From Candidatus Omnitrophota bacterium (lineage in GTDB: Bacteria; Omnitrophota; Gorgyraeia; Gorgyraeales; Gorgyraeaceae): 64,000 bases of DNA. Both the position numbers and the translations under genes were made by a program. Every line of letters starts with the position of its first letter. Positions within the stretch are counted from its first letter, which is position 1. The stretch lies in assembly GCA_030649895.1 (NCBI GenBank), contig JAUSEX010000030.1, positions 592-64,591 of the forward strand, read 5' to 3'. The notes beneath the pieces are model-generated. The model was given only the letters and a program-made list of their open reading frames with translations, searched no databases and was not told where the DNA came from. This document shows positions 1,415-63,530 of the stretch, in pieces.

Positions 1415-1445
1415 CCTCCAAAATTTACAAAGCAAATTCTATCCC
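1415..1445 (-). promoter_or_regulatory. Recurrent dyad leader cassette, degenerate copy, upstream of the ferredoxin gene
   Basis: Gene-sense sequence is GGGATAGAATTTGCTTTGTAAATTTTGGAGGaaatATG. The layout matches the copies at 10189, 16773, 28266, 52612 and 63367. Confidence 0.5.
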
Positions 1446-1542
1446 AAGCTGCCCTTATTTATAATTCATGCGACGAGGGACCTTTTTGGTTAAATTATCC
1501 AAATATGATATATTCTAGCCTATTCCTTGTCAACTAATTTAT

Positions 1543-3744: not shown

Positions 3745-5193
3745 ATGATTATAAAGAGAGACATTGATATTATCAAGGGATATTTTGAGGACTGCTCAGG
3801 CCTTCTCGGCGGTTATGCAGACAGGGTCATAGTGCCAGAGAATGAAAAAGAAACCAAGGAAATACTACTCGAGGCGTGCGCTAAAAACATCCCTGTTACT
3901 ATATCCGGGGGCGGCACAGGCGTAACAGGCGCGAGAGTCCCTTTCGGAGGATGGGTCGTCGCAACAGAAAGCCTTAATAAAATAATAGATATAAACGAAA
4001 AAAAATTTACCGCCACGCTCCAGCCAGGAGTAAGGCTTTCTGACCTGGATGCCCATCTTTCAAAGAAAGGCCTTACGTATTTACCTGACCCCACGGAGCC
4101 GAACGCGTTTCTGGGAGGGACTATATCCACGAACGCCTCAGGCGCAAAAGGCTTCAAATACGGCCCTACGCGTAACTATATAAAAAGATTAAGGATGCTC
4201 CTCTCTACAGGAGATATTATTGATATAAAACGCGGGGACTGCTTTTTAAAGAAAGGTAAAATTTTTGCGCTCAAATTAAAAGATAAAGAAATAAAAATCA
4301 GGGTCCCTGATTACGCGATGCCCGGTATAAAAACAGCTGCCGGATATTACATAAAAGATGACATGGACCTAGTAGATCTGTTTATAGGCCACGAAGGGAC
4401 TCTTGGCTTCATACTTGAAGCTGAAATAGCGCTAGGCAGAAGGCCCGAAGAGATAATGAGCTTTTTCAGCTTTTTCGCTTCAGAAAATGACGCTATAAAC
4501 TTTGTAGGCGACGCCAAGAAACTTAGCGCGATGTCTTTGGAATACATGGACAGCCATTCTCTTTCGCTATTAAGGGTAAAATACCCGAATATCCCGCTCT
4601 CAGCAAAAGGTCTTATATATTTTGAACAGGATTACAAAAAAGAATTTGAATCAGAGGCCATAGACTCCTGGTCCAAGCTTCTTGAAAAACATAATGCGCT
4701 CATGGAAGACTCGTATTTCGCAGATTCCGACAAAGAGAGGGTAAAATTAAAAGAATTAAGGCACGCCTTGCCTGATTCCGTAAACGAGATTGTGAAAAAA
4801 AATAAAATGCCTAAGCTTGGCACGGATATCGCTGTGCCTGATAATAGATTCAAAGAGATGCTGGATTTTTATCACGACAAACTAAAATCCTCGAATATAT
4901 ATTACGTCATATTCGGCCATATAGGCGAAAGCCATATGCATGTAAACATGCTGCCTAAAACAGAAGAAGAATTCAGGGAAAGCCGCCTGGTTTATGCGGA
5001 ATTCGTAAAAAAAGCCGTAAGCTTAGGCGGCACTGTTTCAGCGGAACACGGCATAGGAAAATTAAAACACCACTTCTTGGAAATAATGTACGGGAAAGAA
5101 AACATGAAACAGATGGCCCTTCTTAAGAAATCCCTGGACCCATCGTGCGTATTGGGACTTGATAACATATTCCCGAAGGAACTCCTGAAATGA
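3745..5193 (+). CDS. FAD-linked oxidase of the GlcD / D-lactate dehydrogenase family
   Basis: PCMH-type FAD-binding N-terminus (SGGGTGVTGARVP ... LPDP) and a C-terminal FAD-oxidase domain (EHGIGKLK). Confidence 0.75.
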   Translation: MIIKRDIDIIKGYFEDCSGLLGGYADRVIVPENEKETKEILLEACAKNIPVTISGGGTGVTGARVPFGGWVVATESLNKIIDINEKKFTATLQPGVRLSDLDAHLSKKGLTYLPDPTEPNAFLGGTISTNASGAKGFKYGPTRNYIKRLRMLLSTGDIIDIKRGDCFLKKGKIFALKLKDKEIKIRVPDYAMPGIKTAAGYYIKDDMDLVDLFIGHEGTLGFILEAEIALGRRPEEIMSFFSFFASENDAINFVGDAKKLSAMSLEYMDSHSLSLLRVKYPNIPLSAKGLIYFEQDYKKEFESEAIDSWSKLLEKHNALMEDSYFADSDKERVKLKELRHALPDSVNEIVKKNKMPKLGTDIAVPDNRFKEMLDFYHDKLKSSNIYYVIFGHIGESHMHVNMLPKTEEEFRESRLVYAEFVKKAVSLGGTVSAEHGIGKLKHHFLEIMYGKENMKQMALLKKSLDPSCVLGLDNIFPKELLK

Positions 5194-6281: not shown

Positions 6282-6967
6282 AAATCCCTGCTTATCCCGG
6301 CGCTAAGCTCTTCCCCGTCAAAAAAATCGCACTCTATATTCAATCTGGTGTCTTTTTTAACCAGATAGTCAAGACCGATAACAGCCCCTAGCATCTTTTC
6401 AGACTTTATGCGTTTCCTGTCGTGCTCGTTTACCCATTTTATATAATCAACTGTTCCGTATCTGGCTCCTGCATAAGGCGTCAGATTGCCTATATCCTTT
6501 GATATCAACGCCGAACCCTGCCAGTCATCTATGATCACCCTGTGGTCATTACTGGTTGGAGACGCCATGGGAGGATGAACGCTTATATGCTGAAAACCTG
6601 CTACGGTTTTTATCCCAAGCTCTTTATTCTCGTAGCCTTTTATCCTGAAACCATATGCTCCCGCGAAGCCGCTGTTAAAATTTAAATTCCCAGGGTCTGA
6701 ATTACGCCAGGCTACATCCCCCATGCCTATTTTCCCGTCAAAACATATCCAGTCAAGCACGCCCATGCTGCATGTCAAAAAATACCTGCTCCCGCTTGTT
6801 GAGCCCTGATTATTATCAAGATTTCTGTCTATAAGAAAATCCCCTTCCATCCCCAATATCCATTGTTTTTGCTTTGGCATATGGGTGCCATAACTTGGCG
6901 CTGCATAAGAAACCCCTGGATACAGCATCCCTAAAACTATTAAAACAAAAAAACCCCTTTTAAGCAT
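6278..6967 (-). CDS. Secreted outer-membrane beta-barrel-like protein
   Basis: N-terminal signal peptide (cleavage near VSYA-AP). Alternating amphipathic beta pattern and a C-terminal aromatic residue (…SRDF). Confidence 0.4.
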   Translation of the reverse strand: MLKRGFFVLIVLGMLYPGVSYAAPSYGTHMPKQKQWILGMEGDFLIDRNLDNNQGSTSGSRYFLTCSMGVLDWICFDGKIGMGDVAWRNSDPGNLNFNSGFAGAYGFRIKGYENKELGIKTVAGFQHISVHPPMASPTSNDHRVIIDDWQGSALISKDIGNLTPYAGARYGTVDYIKWVNEHDRKRIKSEKMLGAVIGLDYLVKKDTRLNIECDFFDGEELSAGISRDF

Positions 6968-9764: not shown

Positions 9765-10184
9765 TCATCTCAGTAAAAACACGCCTAGTATCACAAAACC
9801 TATGCCCAGGCCCTTGACAATGGTAAAGCTCTCCCCGAAAAACAAGAGCCCAAGCAAAAAAGAAACCAATGGATACGTAGCGGCAACCGGGACCATCTTA
9901 GACACTTCCCCGTGTTTCAGCGCGCTGTAAAAAAATATCTGGCCCAGGATGCTGGCGAGGATGCCTCCCATAAATAGAAATACTATTGTCCTGGGGTCCG
10001 CCTTCAAAGCCGCTTTTAAAACGCCTATATTAAAAATAGACATTACAACAGCTCCTAAAATAATCCCGGAAGAGCGCACCAGTACGCCCGATAAAGGCTC
10101 TATATTTTTAAGTCCCATCTTTTCCACTATAGGCGCTATGCCCCACACTATAGCTGCCAGTATCGCAAAATAAAAACCCTTCAT
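9765..10184 (-). CDS. Small EamA-like (DMT superfamily) membrane transporter
   Basis: Four TM helices. The likely true start is the ATG at 10184 (MKGFYF…), which sits behind the leader cassette and GGAGGG. The ORF track extends to a TTG codon at 10196. Confidence 0.5.
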   Translation of the reverse strand: MKGFYFAILAAIVWGIAPIVEKMGLKNIEPLSGVLVRSSGIILGAVVMSIFNIGVLKAALKADPRTIVFLFMGGILASILGQIFFYSALKHGEVSKMVPVAATYPLVSFLLGLLFFGESFTIVKGLGIGFVILGVFLLR

Positions 10185-10188
10185 AATA

Positions 10189-10218
10189 CCCTCCAAATTT
10201 GCGAAGCAAATTTGATCC
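10189..10218 (-). promoter_or_regulatory. Recurrent dyad leader cassette, variant with 8-3-8 arms
   Basis: Gene-sense sequence is GGATCAAATTTGCTTCGCAAATTTGGAGGGtattATG, with perfect inverted arms AAATTTGC / GCAAATTT. Confidence 0.5.
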
Positions 10219-10468
10219 GGAGACAGCGTTAAGAAATGCGAATGAATATGAGCATTTTAGCTGCCGAAGGACCTCTCGCTTAAATATTAGCTATACTATA
10301 CCAGATATTATTAGACAATTCAACAATGTCAGTTTTCTGGTTGTGCGCTATTTGAATAGTCAGGCAACGCATTAAGCAACCGCCAGTCTTGGCAGAGGCT
10401 CCTTATAGCGTTATCTAACATTGAAAGTATTACAGCCGATCTTCTGGTTGTTATGGTATAATGTTTTC

Positions 10469-15387: not shown

Positions 15388-16578
15388 TCAGAAGGAAGAA
15401 AACCTGGCAAGTAAATTAAGAAGCTGGTTTTCTTTTGTAAAATTAGGCGTTTTCCAGGATTCCGTTATTTCCTTTTTATGGCCTTTCCATAAGGCGTAGA
15501 AATTTTCAAAGCCATACACGGGCCCCTGGCGATTAATCCAGGCAGGATTTGCCAGATACCTATAAATTCCGTCCGGAAACACGCTATTGCCTATAGCCTT
15601 ATATGTCCAGTATGTCCAGTGAAAACCGAATTCCTTAAAACATTTTAAGGTATCCTTTACCCAACCCAGCTCTCCGTAACATCCGGGGCATCTGGAATTT
15701 ACGCCAAACTCCCCTGCAAAAATCGGAACATTCCATTTCCTGGAATAACTATAATAGCCTTCCAGCCTTTTCCTTATCCTGTTTATATCCCAGTATTCCC
15801 CCATTATGTTGCCGGGGTACTTGAGGCCTTTGTGAAGATTAAAAGTAAACTCCAGCGGATGGTAAAAATGAACGCTATAGGACAGGTTATCCGCGAAAGG
15901 CTCTCCTATATGCTCCAGGACCTGGGACCATATGTTGCCTTCCAAAAATATTATATGATTTTTATCTATGTCTCTTATACGTTTTACGGCTTTTATATAA
16001 AAATTGCGCAATATCTTTCCTGCATCCGCGCTCTTTATGACAGGTTCGTTCAAAATATCATATCCTGCAACTGCGGATTCAGCATTGAATTCATCCGCCA
16101 GTATTTCCCACAGCCTGAAAAACCTTTCCTGATTTTTTTTACTCGCCCACAGCTCCGCTTTCCCTTCGCTATCCGCATGCCAGTCCTCATTCTGCGAGCC
16201 AGGAGCAGCGTGCATATCTAAAATGCAGTGAATATCATATTTTTTGCACAGTTTTACAGCGTTTTTCAGGATAGTCAACCCATTTTTTTCTTCCAGCAAC
16301 CTGTAATTAAAAGGAAGTCTGACGCAGTTAAAACCCGAGGAAGAGATATCCTTGAAATCCGACTCTTGTATGAAATTATTCCTGTAAAGCTCCGCGAATC
16401 TGTCTAATTCTTTTTGGCCCCAACGTTTTTTAAACTCTCTTTTAAAAATCCTCTCGGGTATATTCCTTCCCTGAAGGATATACCCCTCCATCATAAGCCA
16501 CCCGCCAAGATTCGCGCCATGGAGGAAAATCTGCCTGCCTTCAGAATTTATGATATTTGCGTCTTTTATGGTTAGCAT
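15388..16578 (-). CDS. Glycoside hydrolase family 5 (cellulase / beta-mannanase-like)
   Basis: A catalytic NEP motif (ILNEP) within a TIM-barrel-like GH5 pattern, and a nucleophile Glu region (FAGEFG). Confidence 0.65.
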   Translation of the reverse strand: MLTIKDANIINSEGRQIFLHGANLGGWLMMEGYILQGRNIPERIFKREFKKRWGQKELDRFAELYRNNFIQESDFKDISSSGFNCVRLPFNYRLLEEKNGLTILKNAVKLCKKYDIHCILDMHAAPGSQNEDWHADSEGKAELWASKKNQERFFRLWEILADEFNAESAVAGYDILNEPVIKSADAGKILRNFYIKAVKRIRDIDKNHIIFLEGNIWSQVLEHIGEPFADNLSYSVHFYHPLEFTFNLHKGLKYPGNIMGEYWDINRIRKRLEGYYSYSRKWNVPIFAGEFGVNSRCPGCYGELGWVKDTLKCFKEFGFHWTYWTYKAIGNSVFPDGIYRYLANPAWINRQGPVYGFENFYALWKGHKKEITESWKTPNFTKENQLLNLLARFSSF

Positions 16579-16684
16579 CTGAAAAGTATCTAAAGGGACG
16601 GTTTTTTAACATACCTAAACTTCTCGACCTCGCAGGAATCCAGCTTTTGGCTGGCCACCTACGAGGTCGATTTAAAAAAGCAGT

Positions 16685-16768
16685 TTAAGCTCGTGCCCGG
16701 GAGCTAAGACTGCAGCCCTCTTTACAATGAGCCACAGGCCTTAACATATAATGAACAGTGACTTTCAT
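16685..16768 (-). CDS. Mini-ORF (27 aa, MKVTVHYMLRPVAHCKEGCSLSSRARA) carrying the leader cassette and Shine-Dalgarno
   Basis: It has a GGGAGG-N4-ATG start preceded by a half-copy of the dyad cassette. It lies in a 320-bp structured intergenic region. Confidence 0.2.
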   Translation of the reverse strand: MKVTVHYMLRPVAHCKEGCSLSSRARA

Positions 16769-16772
16769 AATG

Positions 16773-16799
16773 CCTCCCAAATTTTGCGAAGCCCGGATC
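16773..16799 (-). promoter_or_regulatory. Recurrent leader cassette, half-copy
   Basis: Gene-sense sequence is GGATCCGGGCTTCGCAAAATTTGGGAGGcattATG. Confidence 0.35.
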
Positions 16800-16901
16800 T
16801 TTTGACGAGTCTTCGCAGTGCGTCCGCCTTAAAAAAGGGCGGGACGAAACAAGCTTTGATCCCGAACCACTCGTATACTCCGGTATATGCGGCAAAGGAC
16901 C

Positions 16902-17531
16902 TCACTTAAATATAAACCCTGTCTCCTTGGACCAGAACAAAAGGTCCAGCTCGTCCATGGGTATCTTTATTTTATCACAAAAATCCTTTAATTTACTTTC
17001 TATCCTGAGATATTCTTTTTTAGTCAGGGATTTTGGTATTTCTTTTATCACGCCGTAAGCCTTTAAATTTTTCAGCACATGCACGTCCAGTATTGCCAGG
17101 TTTTTCCCGAATCCTATATTCCTTAAAAAATGGCTAGCCTCTTTATAGCCTATGCCCTTTATATTTTCAACAAACCATTCCCTGGTCTTTAATATATCTT
17201 TTCCGTCTATATGATCCTTTATCCGTAAACAGCCGTTCTTTTTAAACAAATCCCTGGCACTTACAATAAACTCCGCCTTCTTATTCAGGAATCTTGCAGC
17301 CTTCAGGTGCGGGCTTATAGCTTTTGGATGGCCGTCAAAAAGAAGGCCTGTCTTTTTTAACTCTTTTATGGCCTTATCGCACTCCACTGCCTCTGCCTGA
17401 GGAGTCAACAAACAAAAACAAAGCTCTGAAAAAACGTGTTTATCGTCTTTTTTGTAACTACACTCGAAATCTCTGAGTCTATTTTTAATTAACTCTTTAT
17501 TTTTCTTATAATGTTTCTTTAATTCTTTCAT
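16902..17531 (-). CDS. 8-oxoguanine DNA glycosylase, archaeal/Ogg2 type
   Basis: Roughly 209-aa HhH-GPD protein with the Ogg2-like pattern (…GIGYKEASHFLRNIG…ILDVH). Confidence 0.6.
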   Translation of the reverse strand: MKELKKHYKKNKELIKNRLRDFECSYKKDDKHVFSELCFCLLTPQAEAVECDKAIKELKKTGLLFDGHPKAISPHLKAARFLNKKAEFIVSARDLFKKNGCLRIKDHIDGKDILKTREWFVENIKGIGYKEASHFLRNIGFGKNLAILDVHVLKNLKAYGVIKEIPKSLTKKEYLRIESKLKDFCDKIKIPMDELDLLFWSKETGFIFK

Positions 17532-20905: not shown

Positions 20906-22198
20906 CTAAGCTTTCAAGATCTTCGCAAGATCATCTTTAGGATTAGAGACCAATCTCAAATCAAACTTTTCCTGAAGCACCCCGAATACATTCTTTGATA
21001 AAAATGCAGGAGGCGTAGGGCCTATGTAGATACCCTTAATATTAAGATACAATAAACTTAAAAGAATCGCAACAGCTTTCTGCTCAAACCACGACAGAAC
21101 CAACGTGAGCGGCAGGTCGTTCACGCCTGTCTTAAAAGCACCTGCCAGCGCTTCTGCGATCTTTATCGCGGAATACGCGTTATTGCACTGGCCCACGTCT
21201 ATCAGTCTTGGGATACCTTCTATATCTCCAAAATCAAGCTTATTGAAACGGTATTTTCCGCACGCAAGCGTAAGTATCACGCAATCTTTCGGAACCAGCT
21301 CTGCGAATTCCGTATAATAATTTCTGCCTGCCTTTGCTCCGTCGCAGCCGCCTATTAAAAAGAAATGTTTTATCTTTCCTGATTTCACGGCGCCTATCAC
21401 TTTATCGGCAATGCCAAGGACTGCGGTATGATGAAAACCTGTCATTATCTTTTTACCGGGCGCCTCAGGCAAACCAGGCAAACTCTTCGCCTTCTCAATC
21501 AACCCGCTGAAATCTTTCCTGTCCTGTATCCGCTTAGATCCCGTAACGCCTGTTATGCCTATTGTAAACAGCCTGTCCAGATAAGTATTTTCCGGCGGTA
21601 TCAAAACGCAGTTAGTAGTAGCTAAAATAGCGCCCGGAAATTCTTTAAATTCTTTTTTCTGCTCCTGCCATGCGCCCCCGTAATTACCAACAAGGTGCTT
21701 GAATTTTTTAAGTTCAGGATATCCGTGAGCCGGCAGCATTTCGCTATGCGTGTACACATTAACCCCGGTACCCTCTGTCTGCTTCAATAATTCATAAAGA
21801 TCCAGGAGGTCATGGCCTGTAATAAGTATGCCCGGCCCCTTTCTTGTTCCCGTCTCAACTTCTACAGGCACAGGATTGCCAAACTTGCCGGTATGCGCTT
21901 TATCCAGAAGCTCCATCACCTTTATATTTATCTGGCCGCACTTTAAAACCAGCCCGATATATTGGTTTATGTCAAAGCTCACGTTTGTAACTGTCTTAAA
22001 TAGCGCCTCATGCATAAAAGCATCCACTTCTTTGTCTATAGCCCCGAGTTCTCTTGCGTGATACGCATATGCAGCTATGCCCTTTAACCCGAATAACAGG
22101 GTATCCTGCAGGCTCTGTATATCTTCATTCTTTCCGCACACGCCTGCCTTTGTGCACCCTGTACCGCCCGCTGTCTGCTCGCATTGATAACAAAACAT
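20906..22198 (-). CDS. hcp: Hybrid cluster protein (hydroxylamine reductase)
   Basis: N-terminal MFCYQCEQT…GCTKAGVCGK Cys motif characteristic of Hcp. About 430 aa. Confidence 0.85.
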   Translation of the reverse strand: MFCYQCEQTAGGTGCTKAGVCGKNEDIQSLQDTLLFGLKGIAAYAYHARELGAIDKEVDAFMHEALFKTVTNVSFDINQYIGLVLKCGQINIKVMELLDKAHTGKFGNPVPVEVETGTRKGPGILITGHDLLDLYELLKQTEGTGVNVYTHSEMLPAHGYPELKKFKHLVGNYGGAWQEQKKEFKEFPGAILATTNCVLIPPENTYLDRLFTIGITGVTGSKRIQDRKDFSGLIEKAKSLPGLPEAPGKKIMTGFHHTAVLGIADKVIGAVKSGKIKHFFLIGGCDGAKAGRNYYTEFAELVPKDCVILTLACGKYRFNKLDFGDIEGIPRLIDVGQCNNAYSAIKIAEALAGAFKTGVNDLPLTLVLSWFEQKAVAILLSLLYLNIKGIYIGPTPPAFLSKNVFGVLQEKFDLRLVSNPKDDLAKILKA

Positions 22199-22250
22199 TT
22201 TACCCCTCCCTGTTATTTCGCTTTTCCGATCGCCGATCGGAAAACGGTTT

Positions 22251-22490
22251 CTACTTTTTATTTTTCTTATATCTTTCGTATTTCTGAGACCCTATACAAT
22301 CCTTTGCCATGCTGCACCAGTCAAGACACGACCCGGGCAAACATCTGCTCGTCTTTTTTTTGCAACAAGGGCAGGTAGTTTCCGTCTCGTCAGACCAAAT
22401 CTCTATTTCTTTGCCGCATGAACATTTAATATTCTCAGGAAATGGCTCTTTCACTCTCTTGGAGCCAGGGCAACCGTCAAAAAAACTCAT
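22251..22490 (-). CDS. Small Cys-rich protein (10 Cys in 79 aa) inside the hcp operon
   Basis: CSCGKE…CPCCKKK…CLPGSCLDWC. Its start overlaps the upstream Fe-S gene stop (ATGA). Confidence 0.4.
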   Translation of the reverse strand: MSFFDGCPGSKRVKEPFPENIKCSCGKEIEIWSDETETTCPCCKKKTSRCLPGSCLDWCSMAKDCIGSQKYERYKKNKK

Positions 22491-27919: not shown

Positions 27920-28260
27920 TTTGCTAATTTTATCTCTTTTGCTAATTTTCCGCTTATATTACAGTAGGCCTCTATGGATAATACATCGCCCGGCATGGCG
28001 TCAGGTACAAGATAACTCACTGTCTGGTTGGTATTATTATCCTGCCTGCTTATGCTTTGGCTTATTATTTCTTTTCCATTGAGCCCCGCGTTAACTTTAT
28101 AAACAAAATGTTTCCTAACATCGCTTACATTGTGCATAATAATCGCCGTAAGTATTTTCGTCTTCGGCGCATATGTAAGTTTTATGTCCGAAGGCGGATG
28201 AGCATAAGCCAGCGAACAGATAAAGATACATAAAATCGACAGCATGATTATTTTTTTCAT
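27916..28260 (-). CDS. Secreted small protein of unknown function
   Basis: Signal peptide MKKIIMLSILCIFICSLAYA. Start at 28260 behind the leader cassette. The ORF track begins at 28287. Confidence 0.4.
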   Translation of the reverse strand: MKKIIMLSILCIFICSLAYAHPPSDIKLTYAPKTKILTAIIMHNVSDVRKHFVYKVNAGLNGKEIISQSISRQDNNTNQTVSYLVPDAMPGDVLSIEAYCNISGKLAKEIKLAK

Positions 28261-28265
28261 TTTTG

Positions 28266-28297
28266 CCTCGCAAATTTTGTGAAACAAAATTTGATCC
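28266..28297 (-). promoter_or_regulatory. Recurrent dyad leader cassette with perfect 9-3-9 arms
   Basis: Gene-sense sequence is GGATCAAATTTTGTTTCACAAAATTTGCGAGGcaaaaATG. Confidence 0.5.
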
Positions 28298-28312
28298 AGG
28301 GCGGCTATATGT

Positions 28313-29068
28313 TCACATATTTTGCCGCGAAGGACTTTTGTTTAATAAAGGCGTAAATAGATTAAAACAGGTCAAAGCGAAGAGCTCGGGCTCTTTAACG
28401 CCTGCGGCATATAAAATAAAGACCAGCGCGCCTACGCCTGATCCGAATATTATTTTCCCAAACCTTGTCAGGGGAGTAGTCATCGGCTCTATGAGCATTA
28501 TAAATATAAAGAAATAATTCAGGTAGCCTAATATGTCAAAGATTTGCGCATTTTGAATAATAGCCTGGCCTCCGAATAAAATAAAGGATGCGATAAAATA
28601 GCTTATAATAATCTCTAATTTTTTTATTTTAAAAGAAGAATAAACGCCGAAAGGGATAATAATATACCAGAGATATGCGCCTTTCCATTCCGTGGATAAG
28701 CCCAAAAGAAATACCGCCGCTAATATTCCGAATCCCGCAGGATTAAACACGTGCCTTGTTTTAAACCTTATAAGATGCTTGGAACTTATCGCTAATACAG
28801 AGGTCAGGGCTATTATCCACCAGGCATAGGAGCCGGCCATCACATAACTTACTATTAAACCTGTTATGATTGAGCTTTCCGTTAAAACAAATTCCTTTTC
28901 CTTTAAGTAAGTTACGATAGAGTCGACCAGCGCTGCAGCTATTACGCTGATACATATAGCTAATAAAAATCCTGCGTGTTTCTCCAAAAAAGTTATATAC
29001 ACAGAAAATAACAGCAGAAAAATTCCCAATTGAGCTTTTATTGACCTTGTATTCATTCCTTGCCCCAT
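28313..29068 (-). CDS. Integral membrane protein (7-8 TM helices) of unknown function
   Basis: Hydrophobicity pattern only. A possible Rnf/Nqr-like subunit, but no firm motif. Confidence 0.3.
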   Translation of the reverse strand: MGQGMNTRSIKAQLGIFLLLFSVYITFLEKHAGFLLAICISVIAAALVDSIVTYLKEKEFVLTESSIITGLIVSYVMAGSYAWWIIALTSVLAISSKHLIRFKTRHVFNPAGFGILAAVFLLGLSTEWKGAYLWYIIIPFGVYSSFKIKKLEIIISYFIASFILFGGQAIIQNAQIFDILGYLNYFFIFIMLIEPMTTPLTRFGKIIFGSGVGALVFILYAAGVKEPELFALTCFNLFTPLLNKSPSRQNM

Positions 29069-51634: not shown

Positions 51635-52606
51635 TTATGCCTTGCCTGCGGAGCCCAGGACATGCTCGTTTTTGTGTTTATACATTTTTACAAGTTCATC
51701 CCTCGCAGGGCCCAAGTATTTACGCGGGTCAAATTCTTTGGGATTTAAGGCAAATACCTCTCTTATCTTGGCTGTCATTGCCAAGCGGCCGTCTGAATCA
51801 ATATTTATTTTACAGACAGCGGATGTGGTGGCTTTTCTCAACTGTTCTTCGGGAACTCCAGCTGTATTTTCAAGCTTTCCGCCGTATTTATTTATAAGGT
51901 CTACGTATTCTTTTGTGACGGAACTCGCGCCGTGCAGGACTATCGGAAAACTAGGTATTCTTTTCTCAACCTCTTCCAATATATCAAATCTCAGAGGCGG
52001 AACGCTTTCTCCTGGTTTTAATTTAAATTTATACGCGCCGTGGGAAGTGCCTATGGAGATCGCAAGGCTGTCAACGCCTGTTTTCTTTACAAAGTCCTCC
52101 ACCTCTTCGGGATGAGTGTAATGGCTGGCTTCATGGCTGACTTCGTCTTCTATCCCCGCCAATACTCCGAGCTCGCCTTCCACTGTAACGTCGTATCTAT
52201 GCGCATATTCAACTACTTTTTTAGTAAGGACCACATTGTCTTCGTACGTATGCGCTGAGCCGTCTATCATGACAGAAGAAAATCCTGACTCTATGCAAGA
52301 AACGCAGAGTTCGTAAGTATCTCCGTGGTCCAGGTGAAGCGCCACAGGGATGTTGGAGCCGGCTGATTTTATTATTTCCATAGAGCCCATTGCCATGTGC
52401 CTCAGCAAGATCTGGTTTGCGTATTTCCTGGCGCCTGAAGAAACTTGTAGAATAACAGGAGACTTCGTCTCTATGCAGGCGGTGACTATTGCCTGGAGCT
52501 GCTCCATGTTATTAAAATTATAGGCTGGAATAGCGTATTTGCCAGCCATTGCCTTTTTAAACATATCCCTTGTGTTAACCAGCCCTAAATCTTTGTAAGA
52601 ATGCAT
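51635..52606 (-). CDS. fba: Class II fructose-bisphosphate aldolase
   Basis: LHLDHG…, GAS and HGAS Zn-binding motifs. Start at 52606 behind the leader cassette. Confidence 0.8.
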   Translation of the reverse strand: MHSYKDLGLVNTRDMFKKAMAGKYAIPAYNFNNMEQLQAIVTACIETKSPVILQVSSGARKYANQILLRHMAMGSMEIIKSAGSNIPVALHLDHGDTYELCVSCIESGFSSVMIDGSAHTYEDNVVLTKKVVEYAHRYDVTVEGELGVLAGIEDEVSHEASHYTHPEEVEDFVKKTGVDSLAISIGTSHGAYKFKLKPGESVPPLRFDILEEVEKRIPSFPIVLHGASSVTKEYVDLINKYGGKLENTAGVPEEQLRKATTSAVCKINIDSDGRLAMTAKIREVFALNPKEFDPRKYLGPARDELVKMYKHKNEHVLGSAGKA

Positions 52607-52611
52607 AAAAT

Positions 52612-52648
52612 CCTCCCAAAAAAATTTTGTGGAACAAAATTTGATCCC
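52612..52648 (-). promoter_or_regulatory. Recurrent dyad leader cassette with perfect 9-3-9 arms
   Basis: Gene-sense sequence is GGGATCAAATTTTGTTCCACAAAATTTTTTTGGGAGGattttATG. Confidence 0.5.
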
Positions 52649-52730
52649 GAGCAAGCCTAATAATGCGACAGATAGAAGTATTACAGACGAAACAAAGGAC
52701 CTTTTTGATTTCGTTTATTATACCACCATA

Positions 52731-53702
52731 CTAAACATTGGTCAATTTTCTAAAAGACCGGATAATCTCCAGCATTTCTTCTTTTGTCCTGGCGCGGAAA
52801 GCCTTTTCCCTGAAAGGCCTGACACTTGGCACTCCCTTTGTGTACCACGCGAAAAATTTATGAAACCTTCTTACGCCATGAGCTTCGTCATAGAAATCAA
52901 TATAAGAATTCATATGCTCTATCATGATATCAGCTATCTCGTCAATGCCTGGTTTTTTTATTATCTTTTTATTTTTTAGGAACGCCTTTATCTGCTCGAA
53001 GATCCAGGGATTCCCAAGCGCGCCGCGCGCCACCAGAAGGCCATCGCATCCTGTTTCATCCAGCATTCTTTTAGCCAACTCCGGACTAAACACATCCCCG
53101 CTTCCGATAACGGGTATGCTCAGGGCCTTTTTTACATCCTTTATGGCGCCGTAATCCACTTCTCCGCTGTAACCTTGCTCCCTGTTCCTTCCGTGGATAA
53201 ATAAAGCGCTTACGCCTGCGTCCTGGCTCGCAAGAGCCGCATCTTTTGCGTTTATAGAAGAGCTGTCCCAGCCTGTGCGTATTTTTACAGTAACAGGCTT
53301 GGTAGAATTTTTGACAATAAGTTTTAAAAGCTTATTCAGCTTCTCGGGGTCTTTTAATAATGCAGCGCCTTCGCCGCGCCTTGCAACTTTTTTCACAGGA
53401 CAAGCTGCGTTAAAATCCAGGATATCGTATTCGTAAGAGCCAAGCACGTTCAACGCCCTGGATATAAATTCTTCTTCGCAGCCTATAATCTGTATGCCTA
53501 GAGGCCTGTCCTCAGCGCTCGTAGAAAGCATTTTCTTGGTCTTTTTCATTTTATAGCTTAAGGATCTGACATTTATCATTTCTATAAAGCCAAGCTCGCA
53601 TCCGAACCTGCGGGTTAAAAGCCTGAAAGGCAAATCGCTTACCCCGGCCATAGGCGCAAGTATGAGATTTGATCTTAATTTTAACTTCCCGATTTTAAAC
53701 AT
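52731..53702 (-). CDS. dus: tRNA-dihydrouridine synthase
   Basis: LAPMAGVSDLPFR N-terminus and a TIM-barrel FMN-binding pattern. Confidence 0.8.
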   Translation of the reverse strand: MFKIGKLKLRSNLILAPMAGVSDLPFRLLTRRFGCELGFIEMINVRSLSYKMKKTKKMLSTSAEDRPLGIQIIGCEEEFISRALNVLGSYEYDILDFNAACPVKKVARRGEGAALLKDPEKLNKLLKLIVKNSTKPVTVKIRTGWDSSSINAKDAALASQDAGVSALFIHGRNREQGYSGEVDYGAIKDVKKALSIPVIGSGDVFSPELAKRMLDETGCDGLLVARGALGNPWIFEQIKAFLKNKKIIKKPGIDEIADIMIEHMNSYIDFYDEAHGVRRFHKFFAWYTKGVPSVRPFREKAFRARTKEEMLEIIRSFRKLTNV

Positions 53703-61550: not shown

Positions 61551-62537
61551 CTAAACCTTAATAGTCAATATGTCCGCCTTGGCAATTTCAGCGTAGTCGC
61601 CTTTTCCCAGGTCATGCTTGACAGCGTAATCCACATAGCTCACGGATAAAGGTTCAACCCCCATTAATACGCACGCGTACGAGTCGCACAATACAGGGTC
61701 CGTGCCCACTATCAGGGTTTTCATATCTACAACATCTTCAAGATTTCCTCCTGTTGGCCCGTTTTTCTTAAGCACCCTATAAGCGTCTATTACTGCAAGG
61801 TCTGGTTTTATGAAATCCGTGAGATGCGCCAGTTTTATCCCCATGTCAAAGTGTATCAACCCTCTATTGCCGCTACAAACCCCCATCAGATTTTTCATGG
61901 ACAGCGTAAGGCCGGCGAGACGGTGATGCTTTAACACGGGTACATTTATAAATGTGTCGCATTCCAGGGCATCCCTGAAAACAGGCCATCCTTCCATAGG
62001 ACTCTGGTAATCAAACCTTGCCTTCACTACGTTCCAGTCATCGGGAGAATAGACATTAGCGCCTTTTTCCTTTGCAATCTTTTCTATGCCGCTATTTTTA
62101 TAACAGCGCTTTGGGTCGTTACAGGGGTTATCGAATACATTTACCCTTTTTGCGCCTGAGTTAAAGCACATATCCACAAGCGCTCCGACAACCTGAGGGT
62201 TTGTATTGGCTGCCTGTTCAGGAGTACGGTCCCACCCTATATTAGGCTTTATAAGCACAACGCTATTTTTCTTTACAAATTTATCCATCCCTCCTATCGC
62301 TTCCATTGCTTTCATTGTCATTAGATAAGGGTCATCGCCTTTTGCCACAACCAGATCATGCAGGCCTTTTATTTTTTTAACTGTCCTTCCCGTAGAAATT
62401 TCCTCTTTGCCAAACGCGAATTTAAATAAGGCGTTATTTAACATAAGGCTTCCCGCGCCTATCCCGCATAGCTTTAAAAATCCTTTTCTTGTAATTTTTT
62501 TCTTAGGAAGTCGTTCAAATATTGATTCTACTTTCAT
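61551..62537 (-). CDS. Tat-signal DUF362 protein
   Basis: TRKGFLKLCGIGAG twin-arginine-like signal (RK variant) followed by a DUF362 domain. Confidence 0.5.
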   Translation of the reverse strand: MKVESIFERLPKKKITRKGFLKLCGIGAGSLMLNNALFKFAFGKEEISTGRTVKKIKGLHDLVVAKGDDPYLMTMKAMEAIGGMDKFVKKNSVVLIKPNIGWDRTPEQAANTNPQVVGALVDMCFNSGAKRVNVFDNPCNDPKRCYKNSGIEKIAKEKGANVYSPDDWNVVKARFDYQSPMEGWPVFRDALECDTFINVPVLKHHRLAGLTLSMKNLMGVCSGNRGLIHFDMGIKLAHLTDFIKPDLAVIDAYRVLKKNGPTGGNLEDVVDMKTLIVGTDPVLCDSYACVLMGVEPLSVSYVDYAVKHDLGKGDYAEIAKADILTIKV

Positions 62538-63259
62538 ACCTTCCTCCTGACTATCCGTGACGCCAGTATGCCTGCTTCATAAAGCGCAAGCATAGGGATA
62601 GCAAATATCAGCATGTTCACGATATCCTGCGTAGGCGTAATAATTGCCGCTATTATAAAGATCGCCACTATGGCGTATTTTCTGTTTTTCCTGAAAAATT
62701 CCGCATTCAATATTCCGATATACGACAAAAGCGCCATAATAACCGGTATCTGGAATATCCCGGCTCCTATCAAAAGCAAGGCCCCTGCAAATGAAAAATA
62801 TTTATCTATGCTTATCATGGGCACTGCCGCGCCGTTCGCGAAACTGATAAGAAACTTAAGCGCAAAAGGCAGCGCCAGAAAGTAAGAAAATATTATGCCC
62901 AGTATTGAAAGCAGGAATGATATTATCAGCCAGCTTGCTATGGCCTCCCTTTGATCCTGCTGCACCGCGGGCATTAAAAATAACCCTATTTGGAATAAAA
63001 TAAAAGGCAGGGAAATCATAAAACCTGCCAGGATAGAAAGCCTCAGATACGTTGTAAAAACTTCCGTAGGGGATGTAAATATAAAATTTTCTATTATGCC
63101 TAAAGCCGGTAATCTCAGGATATCAGATATTTTATTCACAAAAGTAAAAGAAAAAATAGCGGCCAGTACAAAAAAAACTAGGCTCGCGATAATCCGCTTG
63201 CGCAACTCTTCCAGATGCTCTATGATTGACATCTTGTTTGGATATATGTCAGTAGCCAT
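62534..63259 (-). CDS. tatC: Twin-arginine translocase subunit TatC
   Basis: Six TM helices and a conserved N-terminal helix (HLEELRKR). Confidence 0.8.
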   Translation of the reverse strand: MATDIYPNKMSIIEHLEELRKRIIASLVFFVLAAIFSFTFVNKISDILRLPALGIIENFIFTSPTEVFTTYLRLSILAGFMISLPFILFQIGLFLMPAVQQDQREAIASWLIISFLLSILGIIFSYFLALPFALKFLISFANGAAVPMISIDKYFSFAGALLLIGAGIFQIPVIMALLSYIGILNAEFFRKNRKYAIVAIFIIAAIITPTQDIVNMLIFAIPMLALYEAGILASRIVRRKV

Positions 63260-63366
63260 TTTTTATCCTTTCAATTTAAAAGATATGGGTATATTATAGT
63301 ATAATATACAAGGTTTGAGAATTAAAAAGAGTTCCTTTCTCCGGCACCTTTAAAAACTGGGCACCT

Positions 63367-63399
63367 GGGATAAAATTTTGTTTCACAAAATTTGGGAGG
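63367..63399 (+). promoter_or_regulatory. Recurrent dyad leader cassette with perfect 9-3-9 arms
   Basis: GGGATAAAATTTTGTTTCACAAAATTTGGGAGGcgtttATG. Confidence 0.5.
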
Positions 63400-63404
63400 C
63401 GTTT

Positions 63405-63530
63405 ATGGCTGTAAAAAAAATCGGTGAAAAGTACAGGTGTAATGTCTGCGGCAATGAAGTGATTGTCACAAAGGCGGGCGGCGGAGAGCTGGTGTGCTGC
63501 AACCAGCCCATGGAAAAAACAGCAGGTTAA
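63405..63530 (+). CDS. dsr: Desulforedoxin-like small Fe(Cys)4 protein (41 aa), missed by the ORF cutoff
   Basis: MAVKKIGEKYRCNVCGNEV…GGGELVCCNQPM has the Dx CxxC…CC signature. Confidence 0.75.
   Translation: MAVKKIGEKYRCNVCGNEVIVTKAGGGELVCCNQPMEKTAG

Follow-up and report, generated by a model that had tools for sequence, protein, structure and literature searches.

The window analyzed here, a stretch of 64,000 nucleotides from a Candidatus Omnitrophota bacterium (contig JAUSEX010000030.1, forward-strand positions 592 to 64,591), contains six copies of an AU-rich dyad, each of which lies on the sense strand of the gene behind it and directly 5' of the Shine-Dalgarno (SD) sequence. These are the six sites given in an initial annotation of the same DNA, which had described a leader cassette of 30 nt; the cassette proved to be real, while its unit was found to measure 68-128 nt and the GGAT(C/A) box named there to be one strand of a helix. 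The suggestion of a transcribed AU-rich hairpin or a shared expression cassette likewise pointed in the right direction, except that the dyad is only the 3' hairpin of a larger element. We tentatively read it, with a probability of roughly 0.45, as part of a modular, lineage-specific repeat cassette of 70-130 nt of Candidatus Omnitrophota, which would act in cis on mRNA as a boundary module.

The consensus of about 100 distinct copies reads aaaAaG-GUCCC-UC-G[variable hairpin]C-UC-GGGAU-C-AAAUUUUG-Y-UUC-R-CAAAAUUU-G-GGAGG-N5-9-AUG. The element is constructed, in this order, of an A-rich flank, a helix P1 (GGUCCC:GGGAUC, with a conserved G.U pair), a UC/UC internal loop, a variable hairpin P2, the hairpin P3 (AAAUUUUG-YUUCR-CAAAAUUU, the dyad of the initial annotation) and a G joined to GGAGG. 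The GGAT(C/A) box represents the 3' strand of P1, and the 5' strand (AAAAGGUCCYUYG) is situated 35-60 nt upstream, where an alignment of the six upstream regions of the window disclosed a second conserved box, AAAAGGTCCTTYG.

Three of the window copies carry a perfect 9-3-9 dyad, as had been described (28272-28292, 52622-52642 and 63373-63393), and these are the perfect matches to the pattern AAATTTTGYNNNRCAAAATTT; with up to three mismatches, four matches were obtained against a mean of 0.84 in shuffled sequence, and four or more occurred in 0 of 100 shuffles. A covariance model built from 66 copies of relatives recovered the six sites and zero others in the 64 kb, which corresponds to a density of about one copy per 10 kb. 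Across the window copies, the SD sequence starts 0-4 nt past the dyad. The desulforedoxin, class II aldolase, EamA and ferredoxin identities of the downstream genes were confirmed by Pfam. Four copies (fba, desulforedoxin, EamA and ferredoxin) are promoter-proximal, with promoter-like sites 15-25 nt upstream of P1, and each of the remaining two begins at the stop codon of the preceding gene.

The leader of the desulforedoxin gene (63325-63393, plus strand; 44.2 bits in the covariance model, E 7e-7) includes the A-rich flank, the 5' strand of P1 (GUUCC, 63331-63335), a decayed P2, the 3' strand of P1 (GGGAU, 63367-63371) and P3 (63373-63393), and is followed by the SD sequence GGGAGG (63394-63399), a 5-nt spacer and the ATG (63405-63407) of a 41-aa protein (Pfam Desulfoferrod_N, E 7.5e-18), so that 63367-63407 reads GGGATA-AAATTTTGTTTCACAAAATTT-GGGAGG-CGTTT-ATG. 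A sigma-70-like promoter, TTAAAA-18-TATAAT (63276-63305, plus strand), is predicted there by consensus match only, and its -10 box ends 25 nt 5' of P1. The leader of fba (52622-52706, minus strand; 50.9 bits; fold z -2.6), a gene for a class II fructose-bisphosphate aldolase (Pfam F_bP_aldolase), displays P1 as GGUCCU:GGGAUC, a long P2, P3 at 52622-52642, UUUU, the SD sequence at 52612-52617 and the ATG at 52604-52606; its sigma-70-like candidate promoter TTGACC-17-TATAAT (52717-52745, minus strand), which agrees with the consensus at 11 of 12 positions and has a TG extension, ends its -10 box 15 nt 5' of P1. The best preserved copy (28272-28341, minus strand; 70.2 bits, E 4e-12; fold z -4.5) precedes the gene of a 114-aa secreted protein, with P3 at 28272-28292, an SD-like GCGAGG at 28266-28271 and the ATG at 28258-28260, and begins right behind the stop-codon region of an upstream RnfD-like gene (28341).

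The EamA leader (10195-10278, minus strand; 42.5 bits; fold z -3.0; Pfam EamA) contains a P3 with symmetric one-base deletions, AAAUUUGC-UUC-GCAAAUUU (10195-10213), and is followed by the SD sequence GGAGGG (10189-10194) and the ATG (10182-10184); a promoter-like site lies at 10295-10323 on the same strand. In the ferredoxin leader (1420-1487, minus strand; 45.7 bits; fold z -0.7; Pfam Fer4_13), P1 is GUCCC:GGGAU, P2 is weak and P3 is the variant GAAUUUGC-UUU-GUAAAUUU(U) with G.U pairs, after which come the SD sequence GGAGG (1415-1419) and the ATG (1408-1410), and a promoter-like TTGACA-17-TATCAT is located at 1505-1533 (minus strand). The sixth copy (16779-16906, minus strand; 27.6 bits for the match at 16847-16906; fold z -2.0) had been taken for a half copy and turned out to be a full one, whose P3 is split by an insertion of about 58 nt that includes a GC-rich hairpin. 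It begins at the stop codon of the upstream Ogg gene (16906) and consists of an intact P1/P2 (16847-16906), the 3' arm CAAAAUUU (16779-16786), the SD sequence (16773-16778) and the ATG (16766-16768) of a 27-codon mini-open reading frame. This frame (16768-16685, minus strand) is followed by a long inverted repeat at about 16615-16665, upstream of a GH5 cellulase gene (15388-16578); the region 16600-16770 (minus strand) may be a leader-peptide arrangement or the debris of two recombined copies. P3 is the best-kept part in the window, since it is intact where P1 and P2 have decayed: in the desulforedoxin and ferredoxin copies the upstream hairpin gave fold z values of only -0.3 and -0.7 (-0.28 for the whole desulforedoxin copy, against -3.0 for its P3 alone).

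Beyond the window, the pattern GGATNAAATTTTGNNNNNCAAAATTT was scanned against one genome per species, and more than 116 stretches were obtained among the matches listed, nearly all of them in Candidatus Omnitrophota assemblies. The full element was also found on a few contigs labelled Planctomycetia or Nitrospirae, and the pattern matches in other phyla were dismissed as chance, the upstream box being absent there. Synteny and about 80% protein identity link the window to two element-bearing loci, which places it in the same phylum, although its own copies are more diverged. At the gathering thresholds of Rfam 15 the window gave no match; at an E-value threshold only chance-level matches appeared, on two copies (E at least 0.65, 13-17 bits versus thresholds of 41-92). 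The exact pattern had no match in viral contigs, and no description of the element was found in the literature searched on Omnitrophota RNA motifs and SD-adjacent REP-like repeats. The element is an uncatalogued dispersed structured repeat, and its exact docking to the SD sequence is an unusual and unexplained property.

Covariation and strand of the hairpins

In 118 aligned copies from Omnitrophota genomes, 95.1% of the pair cells hold standard pairs versus 84% in shuffles, and this value falls to 53-61% when the partners are slid by one column. Changes on both sides were observed in 17 of the 20 pairs, and 257 cells are doubly changed versus 69 in shuffles, none of 500 shuffles reaching this number. 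The comparison of relatives proposed in the initial annotation, by which compensatory change in an RNA was to be told from conserved half-sites of a protein, came out on the side of compensation. P1 occurs as GGUCCC with GGGAUC or as GGUCCU with AGGAUC (92 C-G and 17 U-A), the closing pair of P2 alternates among G-C, A-U and G.U, and at the apex of P3 57 copies have a U-A pair and 52 a C-G pair. Copies that were found by the model and missed by the pattern exhibit covariation of the whole P3 arms, for instance GAAUUUUAC/GUAAAAUUC, GAUUUUUAU/GUAAAAAUC, AAAUCCGC/GCGGAUUU and AAUUUCGCC/GGCGAAAUU, and the window variants still pair, through the symmetric deletions of the EamA copy and the G.U pairs of the ferredoxin copy.

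These features bear directly on the proposal that a dimeric DNA-binding regulator of a global redox or anaerobiosis regulon has the dyad as its operator, overlapping the translation start. It is favored by the perfect 9-3-9 DNA dyads of the three window copies and by the several redox proteins encoded downstream. An operator read by a protein as two half-sites is nevertheless ruled out by the compensatory arm changes, the G.U pairs and the symmetric one-base deletions, which shift the half-site spacing; in addition, the loop is strand-biased, the dyad is always coupled to a covarying upstream helix, and copies stand within operons directly after upstream stop codons, inside or beside stable RNA genes and in front of unrelated genes. 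The operator is accordingly the least credible of the explanations weighed here and can hardly be maintained.

The strand was judged by direct pair counts in place of folding energy, which differs by only -1.06 kcal/mol between the forward and the reverse strand, in a test confounded by the stabilizing tandem GA that the UC/UC loop becomes on the reverse strand. G.U occupies position 2 of P1 in 96 of the 118 copies (A-U in 18), UUC loops outnumber GAA loops in P3 by about 100 to about 7, and all 95 SD-adjacent copies are single and gene-sense; together, these point to the sense strand of the downstream gene. A covarying secondary structure on the sense strand of a 5' leader, such as would be expected of a leader RNA, is present. 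The internal loop is conserved as well, with UC on its 5' side in 105 of 118 copies and UC(G/A) on its 3' side in 101.

P3 itself is weak (-3.5 kcal/mol in the desulforedoxin copy), and this marginal stability could be that of a riboswitch or RNA thermometer, a sensor RNA in which the AU hairpin beside the SD sequence opens and closes on a global signal. In some copies the 5' arm and loop of P3 (UUGCUUC) can alternatively pair with GGGAGG, which speaks for such a switch. The SD sequence is, however, free in the dominant predicted fold, the long hairpin is devoid of a conserved pocket and has only a 2x2 loop, and a frequency of about one copy per 10 kb, before unrelated genes and tRNA genes and in RNase P RNA, is unlike that of ligand sensors, all of which renders a sensor very improbable.

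Several further candidate roles were examined. An intrinsic terminator was rejected, since no terminator-like site lies on the sense strand over the window copies, where C-AAAUUUU comes after the long hairpin; the 5' box CCCUC was set aside as an anti-SD, since it could form at most 4 bp with the SD sequence; and the GGA of GGGAUC, as a potential CsrA-type site, is buried in P1. The predicted architecture, with P1 of 6 bp, a 2x2 loop and P2 of 5-15 bp, would be compatible with an RNase III-type site. A variant of the element possesses an extra module of about 45 nt, CCUCGGYGCCGAG-CGCUCUGAUAGC-CGGCAC...CGAGG, between the 3' UC loop and GGGAU, which gives a three-way junction; it was observed at L030:431-545, L026:2790-2903, L048:222-334 and L014:1114-1191, where the L numbers designate loci outside the window.

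Register with Shine-Dalgarno sequences and RNA genes

In 95 of 120 copies, 0-2 nt separate P3 from the SD G-run and 8-15 nt separate it from the start codon. The initial annotation had named as its own refutation the case that the dyad belongs to a larger dispersed repeat unrelated to gene starts; the dyad does belong to a larger dispersed repeat, which is also encountered at tRNA and 5S rRNA genes and within RNase P RNA, but the tie of this repeat to gene starts is strong. GGGAGG stands behind 65% of the copies versus 5% of 404 other SD-bearing genes of the same loci (odds ratio 32, p 4e-28), and these 404 control genes revealed no peak of hairpins against the SD sequence at offsets 0-1, by which a general genomic habit of placing hairpins there was rejected. 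The register is therefore a property of the element and not of the genomes. Filled and empty orthologous junctions, when compared, suggest that the element, ending in ...AAAUUU-G, may have been joined to a resident GGAGG, with the spacer and the start codon left unchanged.

On their 5' side, about 40 copies begin -7 to +5 nt from the stop codon of the preceding gene, and in about 15 the preceding open reading frame ends inside the element. The remaining copies are located behind promoter-like sites, whose -10 box ends 10-25 nt 5' of P1 (15-25 nt in the window and 10-15 nt in many external copies). About 15 promoter-proximal copies hold an equally exact SD register despite room elsewhere.

The 89 proteins encoded downstream fall into 110 Pfam families, and the redox or anaerobiosis regulon envisaged in the initial annotation finds no counterpart among them, there being no theme beyond mostly highly expressed housekeeping genes. 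They include EF-Tu, S7, S19, L7/L12, L19, L20, GreA, NrdR, glutamine synthetase (GlnA), GAPDH and Fba, together with DnaK, GroES, thioredoxin, AhpC, OmpA-family proteins and MoxR ATPases. That many of these genes are usually highly expressed is general knowledge and not a measurement. A coherent functional gene set, as would be expected behind a leader RNA, was not found among the 89 proteins, and tRNA, 5S and RNase P RNA sites are occupied too. Single operons can contain several copies, for example before both S7 and EF-Tu in L069.

Stable RNA genes are approached closely as well. Among the 120 copies, at least three were automatically called 1-3 nt before the 5' end of a tRNA gene (about six with hand-read cases), and at least eight (about ten with hand-read cases) abut a tRNA 3' end on the other strand with a gap of -1 to +2 nt; the remaining copies are members of tandems or stand beside other RNA genes. 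Several genomes share the 3'-end arrangement in their Cys-Leu-Val tRNA cluster, where reverse-oriented copies were located at L032:3641-3710 and 3795-3862, L028:2592-2665, L037:6908-7044 and L088:7216-7290. On the tRNA strand, these copies read as P3 followed by GUCCC-GA-G[hairpin]C-GA-GGGGC, with a tandem G.A loop and a P1 that pairs better there, and in L037 a back-to-back pair of copies lies between two tRNA genes. A dyad-only copy stands about 5 nt upstream of a 5S rRNA gene. Furthermore, the class A RNase P RNA gene of two genomes harbors copies in an expanded region after the conserved ACAGAGA, which we take to be the P12 arm: a single reverse copy in one (L109:1086-1150, within the gene at L109:874-1384) and an inverted doublet in the other (L059:161-303, within the gene at L059:1-506). 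The latter RNA contains a further core-only module, AAUCCCUCG...CUCGGGAU, in its earlier part.

Such positions raise the prospect that the element is a kind of punctuation, that is, a site at the boundaries of RNA units for a lineage-specific RNA-binding protein or endoribonuclease, which would take P1 and the UC/UC loop as its target and whose cut would release monocistronic mRNAs starting at P3-SD and aid tRNA and 5S maturation. The sequences of P1 and of the internal loop are more conserved than pairing requires, P3 is tight on RNA ends (1-3 nt before tRNA 5' ends, -1 to +2 at tRNA 3' ends and about 5 nt before 5S), several copies can occur within one operon, and P1 (GUCCC/GGGAC) is nearly its own reverse complement, so that a symmetric enzyme binding double strands could read both orientations. 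The presence of copies inside mature RNase P RNA speaks against obligatory cleavage, RNase P substrates do not usually have a hairpin so close (1-3 nt) to the tRNA 5' end, and a stem of 13-20 bp is short for RNase III. Punctuation, which is a more specific version of a functional reading, is thus considered rather unlikely.

Gain, loss and the behavior of a repeat

The relatives compared are deeply diverged, with identities of 0.31-0.50 at four-fold degenerate sites, which are saturated. Many orthologous junctions retain the element despite this saturation, with a P2 that is randomized (identity 0.28-0.6) and yet paired. The element was present in both genomes in 32 of 52 orthologous junction pairs and in one genome only in the other 20. 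Empty junctions hold a stop-SD-ATG spacer of 15-25 nt or unrelated hairpins, and the inserts sit exactly between the stop codon or promoter and the SD sequence. The window offers two empty sites. At 62534-62540 (minus strand), its TatC and DUF362 genes overlap by ATGA, where L030 has a 115-nt copy into which the TatC reading frame continues; and at about 22220-22265 (minus strand), upstream of the hybrid-cluster-protein gene hcp (20906-22198), L113 has a full copy, whereas in the window GGGAGG is preceded at about 17 nt by a small, unrelated hairpin, UUUUCCGAUC-GGC-GAUCGGAAAA. Six comparisons of filled with empty junctions revealed no consistent target-site duplication. Close orthologues can differ by whole P2 or P3 modules, a reverse-oriented core is nested within the P2 of one subtype, and both tandem copies and core-only divergent doublets occur. 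This pattern of turnover and subtypes is the behavior of a propagating repeat family.

The main rival to a function on mRNA follows from here, namely that the element is a palindromic repeat like REPs/REPINs, BIMEs or MITEs, either purely selfish or neutral, spread through DNA or single-stranded DNA hairpins or by microhomology-mediated copying, which survives only in harmless slots and owes its register to an insertion constraint or to joining at GGAGG. It explains much of the turnover: gain and loss as such, the empty spacers of 15-25 nt, in which the gap from stop codon to SD sequence would be the only harmless slot, the copies in RNase P RNA (one of them an inverted doublet), the tandem, nested and divergent arrangements, identical P2 subtypes at several genes of one genome, the swaps of P2 and P3 modules, upstream reading frames that continue into the element and the decay of some window copies. 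Its reverse complement would be a GC hairpin followed by a U-run, as in a terminator, and selection against this form could alone explain the locked orientation. The same core moreover recurs in a dispersed repeat of high-GC soil metagenome contigs among unrelated housekeeping genes.

On the other side, a selfish repeat does not account for the equally exact register of the roughly 15 promoter-proximal copies, for retention across lineages whose synonymous sites are saturated while P2 changes in a compensatory manner, for a P3 that is intact where P1 and P2 decay, or for the enrichment before highly expressed genes. Terminal inverted repeats, target-site duplications and the GTAG or CGTC tag of REPs were likewise not seen: the ends, AAAAGGUCCC... 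and ...CAAAAUUUG, are not mutual inverted repeats, by which a MITE was rejected, and in the consensus the paired GUCCC comes after the 5' flank aaaAaG. The search for a Y1-transposase or RAYT homologue by tblastn in 0.86 Mb around the copies gave no match below E 0.05, a weak test with two query sequences. In the balance, a selfish or neutral repeat is possible and would have to be called somewhat unlikely.

Comparison with established repeat families leads to the same mixture. As is the case for REPs, BIMEs and REPINs (PMC3479197, PMC12306157), the copies are high-copy imperfect palindromes, extragenic (all intergenic or within RNA genes) but presumably transcribed and found within operons, with mosaic, tandem and inverted arrangements, gain and loss between relatives and subfamilies with compensatory changes. 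The element differs from them in being twice as long, with two different hairpins, no GTAG/CGTC tag and no RAYT gene found in the 0.86 Mb, and in an orientation that is locked to the downstream gene and abuts the SD sequence, whereas REPs typically lie behind genes; inverted doublets were seen in RNase P RNA, in tRNA spacers and as core-only pairs, and the 95 SD-adjacent copies are all single.

In Neisseria, the repeats known as Correia elements (CREE/NEMIS) measure about 100-150 bp, frequently lie immediately 5' of genes and are transcribed with them, and they form a hairpin whose processing by RNase III alters mRNA stability; they end in inverted repeats, duplicate a TA target, contain an IHF site, can carry promoters and have no fixed SD register. 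They resemble the Omnitrophota element in size and in their place upstream of genes, while their inverted ends, TA duplication, IHF site and promoters were not seen in it. The MIRUs of Mycobacterium tuberculosis, which are direct tandem repeats with small open reading frames for translational coupling, similarly fill operon gaps with borders touching the upstream stop and the downstream start region, and are not covarying hairpins.

Core-only divergent doublets were observed at L076:1240-1400, 1640-1800 and 6339-6461, L104:5441-5547, L051:6426-6568 and L002:1785-1835. They take the forms ACCCCUCG...CUCGGGGU and AAUCCCUCG...CUCGGGAU, without the AU hairpin and each flanked by a conserved hairpin, ATGACTTACG...CGTAAGTCAT, and they occupy spacers of ribosomal-protein operons as a BIME-like mosaic. 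At the junction orthologous to L072:235 and L095:1379, other long palindromes stand directly before the SD sequence in L104 (CTCGACTCGCTTCGCTCG...CGAGCGAAGC...GAGTCGAG) and in L054 (AAAAGTCAAAAC...GTTTTGACTTTTT), and the same SD-adjacent slot seems to have been colonized by several repeat families.

The soil repeat was met in high-GC soil and peat metagenome contigs (L117-L236). It has the same core, GUCCC-UC-G[hairpin]C-UC-GGGAU, which is continued by GACA and not by the AU hairpin, and takes the form cAG-GTCCCTCG-[hairpin]-CTCGGGA-TGACA, often in tandem or inverted arrays (for example L222:6440-6730, L128:5027-5197, L226:4055-4164 and L154:1463-1494). It gave no Rfam match, and its neighbors are unrelated housekeeping genes with no enrichment of transposases; its occurrence in L222 is separated by about 260 nt from an Acido-Lenti-1 RNA. 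When metagenomes were scanned for the core alone, mostly this repeat and chance matches in high-GC coding DNA were retrieved, the leader type being found only in L130. The common core may be due to common descent, to a shared recognizing enzyme or to a coincidence of the search pattern.

A proposed boundary module on mRNA and its known counterparts

According to the boundary-module reading, the element would be transcribed as part of the mRNA of the downstream gene, where it would fold on itself, keep the ribosome-binding site out of upstream structure and separate the cistrons. The hairpin of P1, loop and P2 would absorb the upstream context and would probably offer a defined structure or site to the machinery of RNA decay or processing, and the weak AU hairpin P3 with the junction G would present GGGAGG in a constant context. 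The cassette is at the same time a member of a dispersed repeat family that is gained and lost at single gene junctions, with modules also in tRNA spacers, a 5S flank and an arm of RNase P RNA. That P3 is kept where P1 and P2 decay, and that promoter-proximal copies hold the exact register, argues for some constraint by a host function. The predicted probability that the SD sequence is unpaired is 0.43 with the real element versus 0.36 with shuffled ones (p 6e-4), which lends modest support to an insulating effect.

Several observations have to be set against this reading. The gain in SD accessibility just mentioned is small. The element is dispensable, junctions without it being found in 20 of 52 pairs, some with unrelated hairpins or none. 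P2 subtypes recur at several genes of one genome, and the copies in RNase P RNA, the inverted doublets, the nested and tandem copies and the roughly 15 upstream reading frames entering the element are typical of a propagating repeat. The sequence conservation of P3 is partly a matter of ascertainment, most external copies having been gathered through the exact P3 pattern. Wobble pairs beyond the conserved G.U carry no strand signal (65 G.U versus 58 A.C). Lastly, the predicted promoters would leave 9-18 unpaired nucleotides ahead of P1, which makes a poor fit to a classical 5'-terminal stabilizer unless the RNA is processed first.

Functional counterparts are known from other systems. The RNase III sites of phage T7 (R1.1 type) lie between cistrons, give stable monocistronic mRNAs that can be translated and, like the element, are built of a lower stem, an internal loop and an upper stem. 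In plastids, a short structured intercistronic expression element gives rise to stable, translatable monocistronic mRNAs (PMC2230500). Cleavage has been demonstrated for these two and is only a possibility for the Omnitrophota element; unlike it, they are neither genome-wide repeats nor found in tRNA spacers or RNase P RNA. The layout of a stable upstream hairpin, a small hairpin directly 5' of the ribosome-binding site and an SD sequence that stays single-stranded whatever lies upstream is that of the stabilizing 5' untranslated region of ompA and of the synthetic RiboJ insulator. The element shares this layout, and both of these are single cases and not a repeat family; moreover, hairpin 1 of ompA is placed at the 5' end of the transcript, whereas the predicted promoters of the element leave 9-18 free nucleotides, and RiboJ has a self-cleaving ribozyme, whereas nothing ribozyme-like is present in the element.

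A bolder combination of these ideas is a phylum-specific system of punctuation and docking, in which a dedicated factor would read the module at RNA boundaries (ribosome-binding sites of mRNAs, tRNA ends and 5S rRNA) and the module would spread by homing to the 5' edge of the SD sequence, bringing P3 and GGGAGG with it as a complete, strong context for translation initiation to any gene behind its landing site. We regard it as a long shot; if true, this SD-targeted propagation of a structured leader would make it a mobile regulatory element of a new kind.

The bacteria of the Omnitrophota are uncultivated and ultra-small and are reported to be very active, and we know of nothing that has been learned about the control of their gene expression. 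The structure described here, which is supported by covariation, stands before roughly one gene in ten, among them genes for translation and for central metabolism. Should it act on RNA, Omnitrophota transcripts would have a major feature that annotation has so far missed; should it enhance or insulate expression, it would be the natural equivalent of the insulators engineered for ribosome-binding sites. If it is selfish, its exact docking to the SD sequence and its tolerance in RNase P RNA would be unusual for bacterial repeats and would bear on the evolution of operon spacers. The element can in any case mislead gene callers, as upstream reading frames run into it, and it can serve as a lineage marker.

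A minor observation concerns the region just upstream of the predicted ferredoxin promoter, where a perfect inverted repeat of 20 bp, AGGGACAGCGACCATTTTTC...GAAAAATGGTCGCTGTCCCT, bordered by T-runs at either side, is located at 1544-1590 of the window; by its sequence it looks like a bidirectional terminator.

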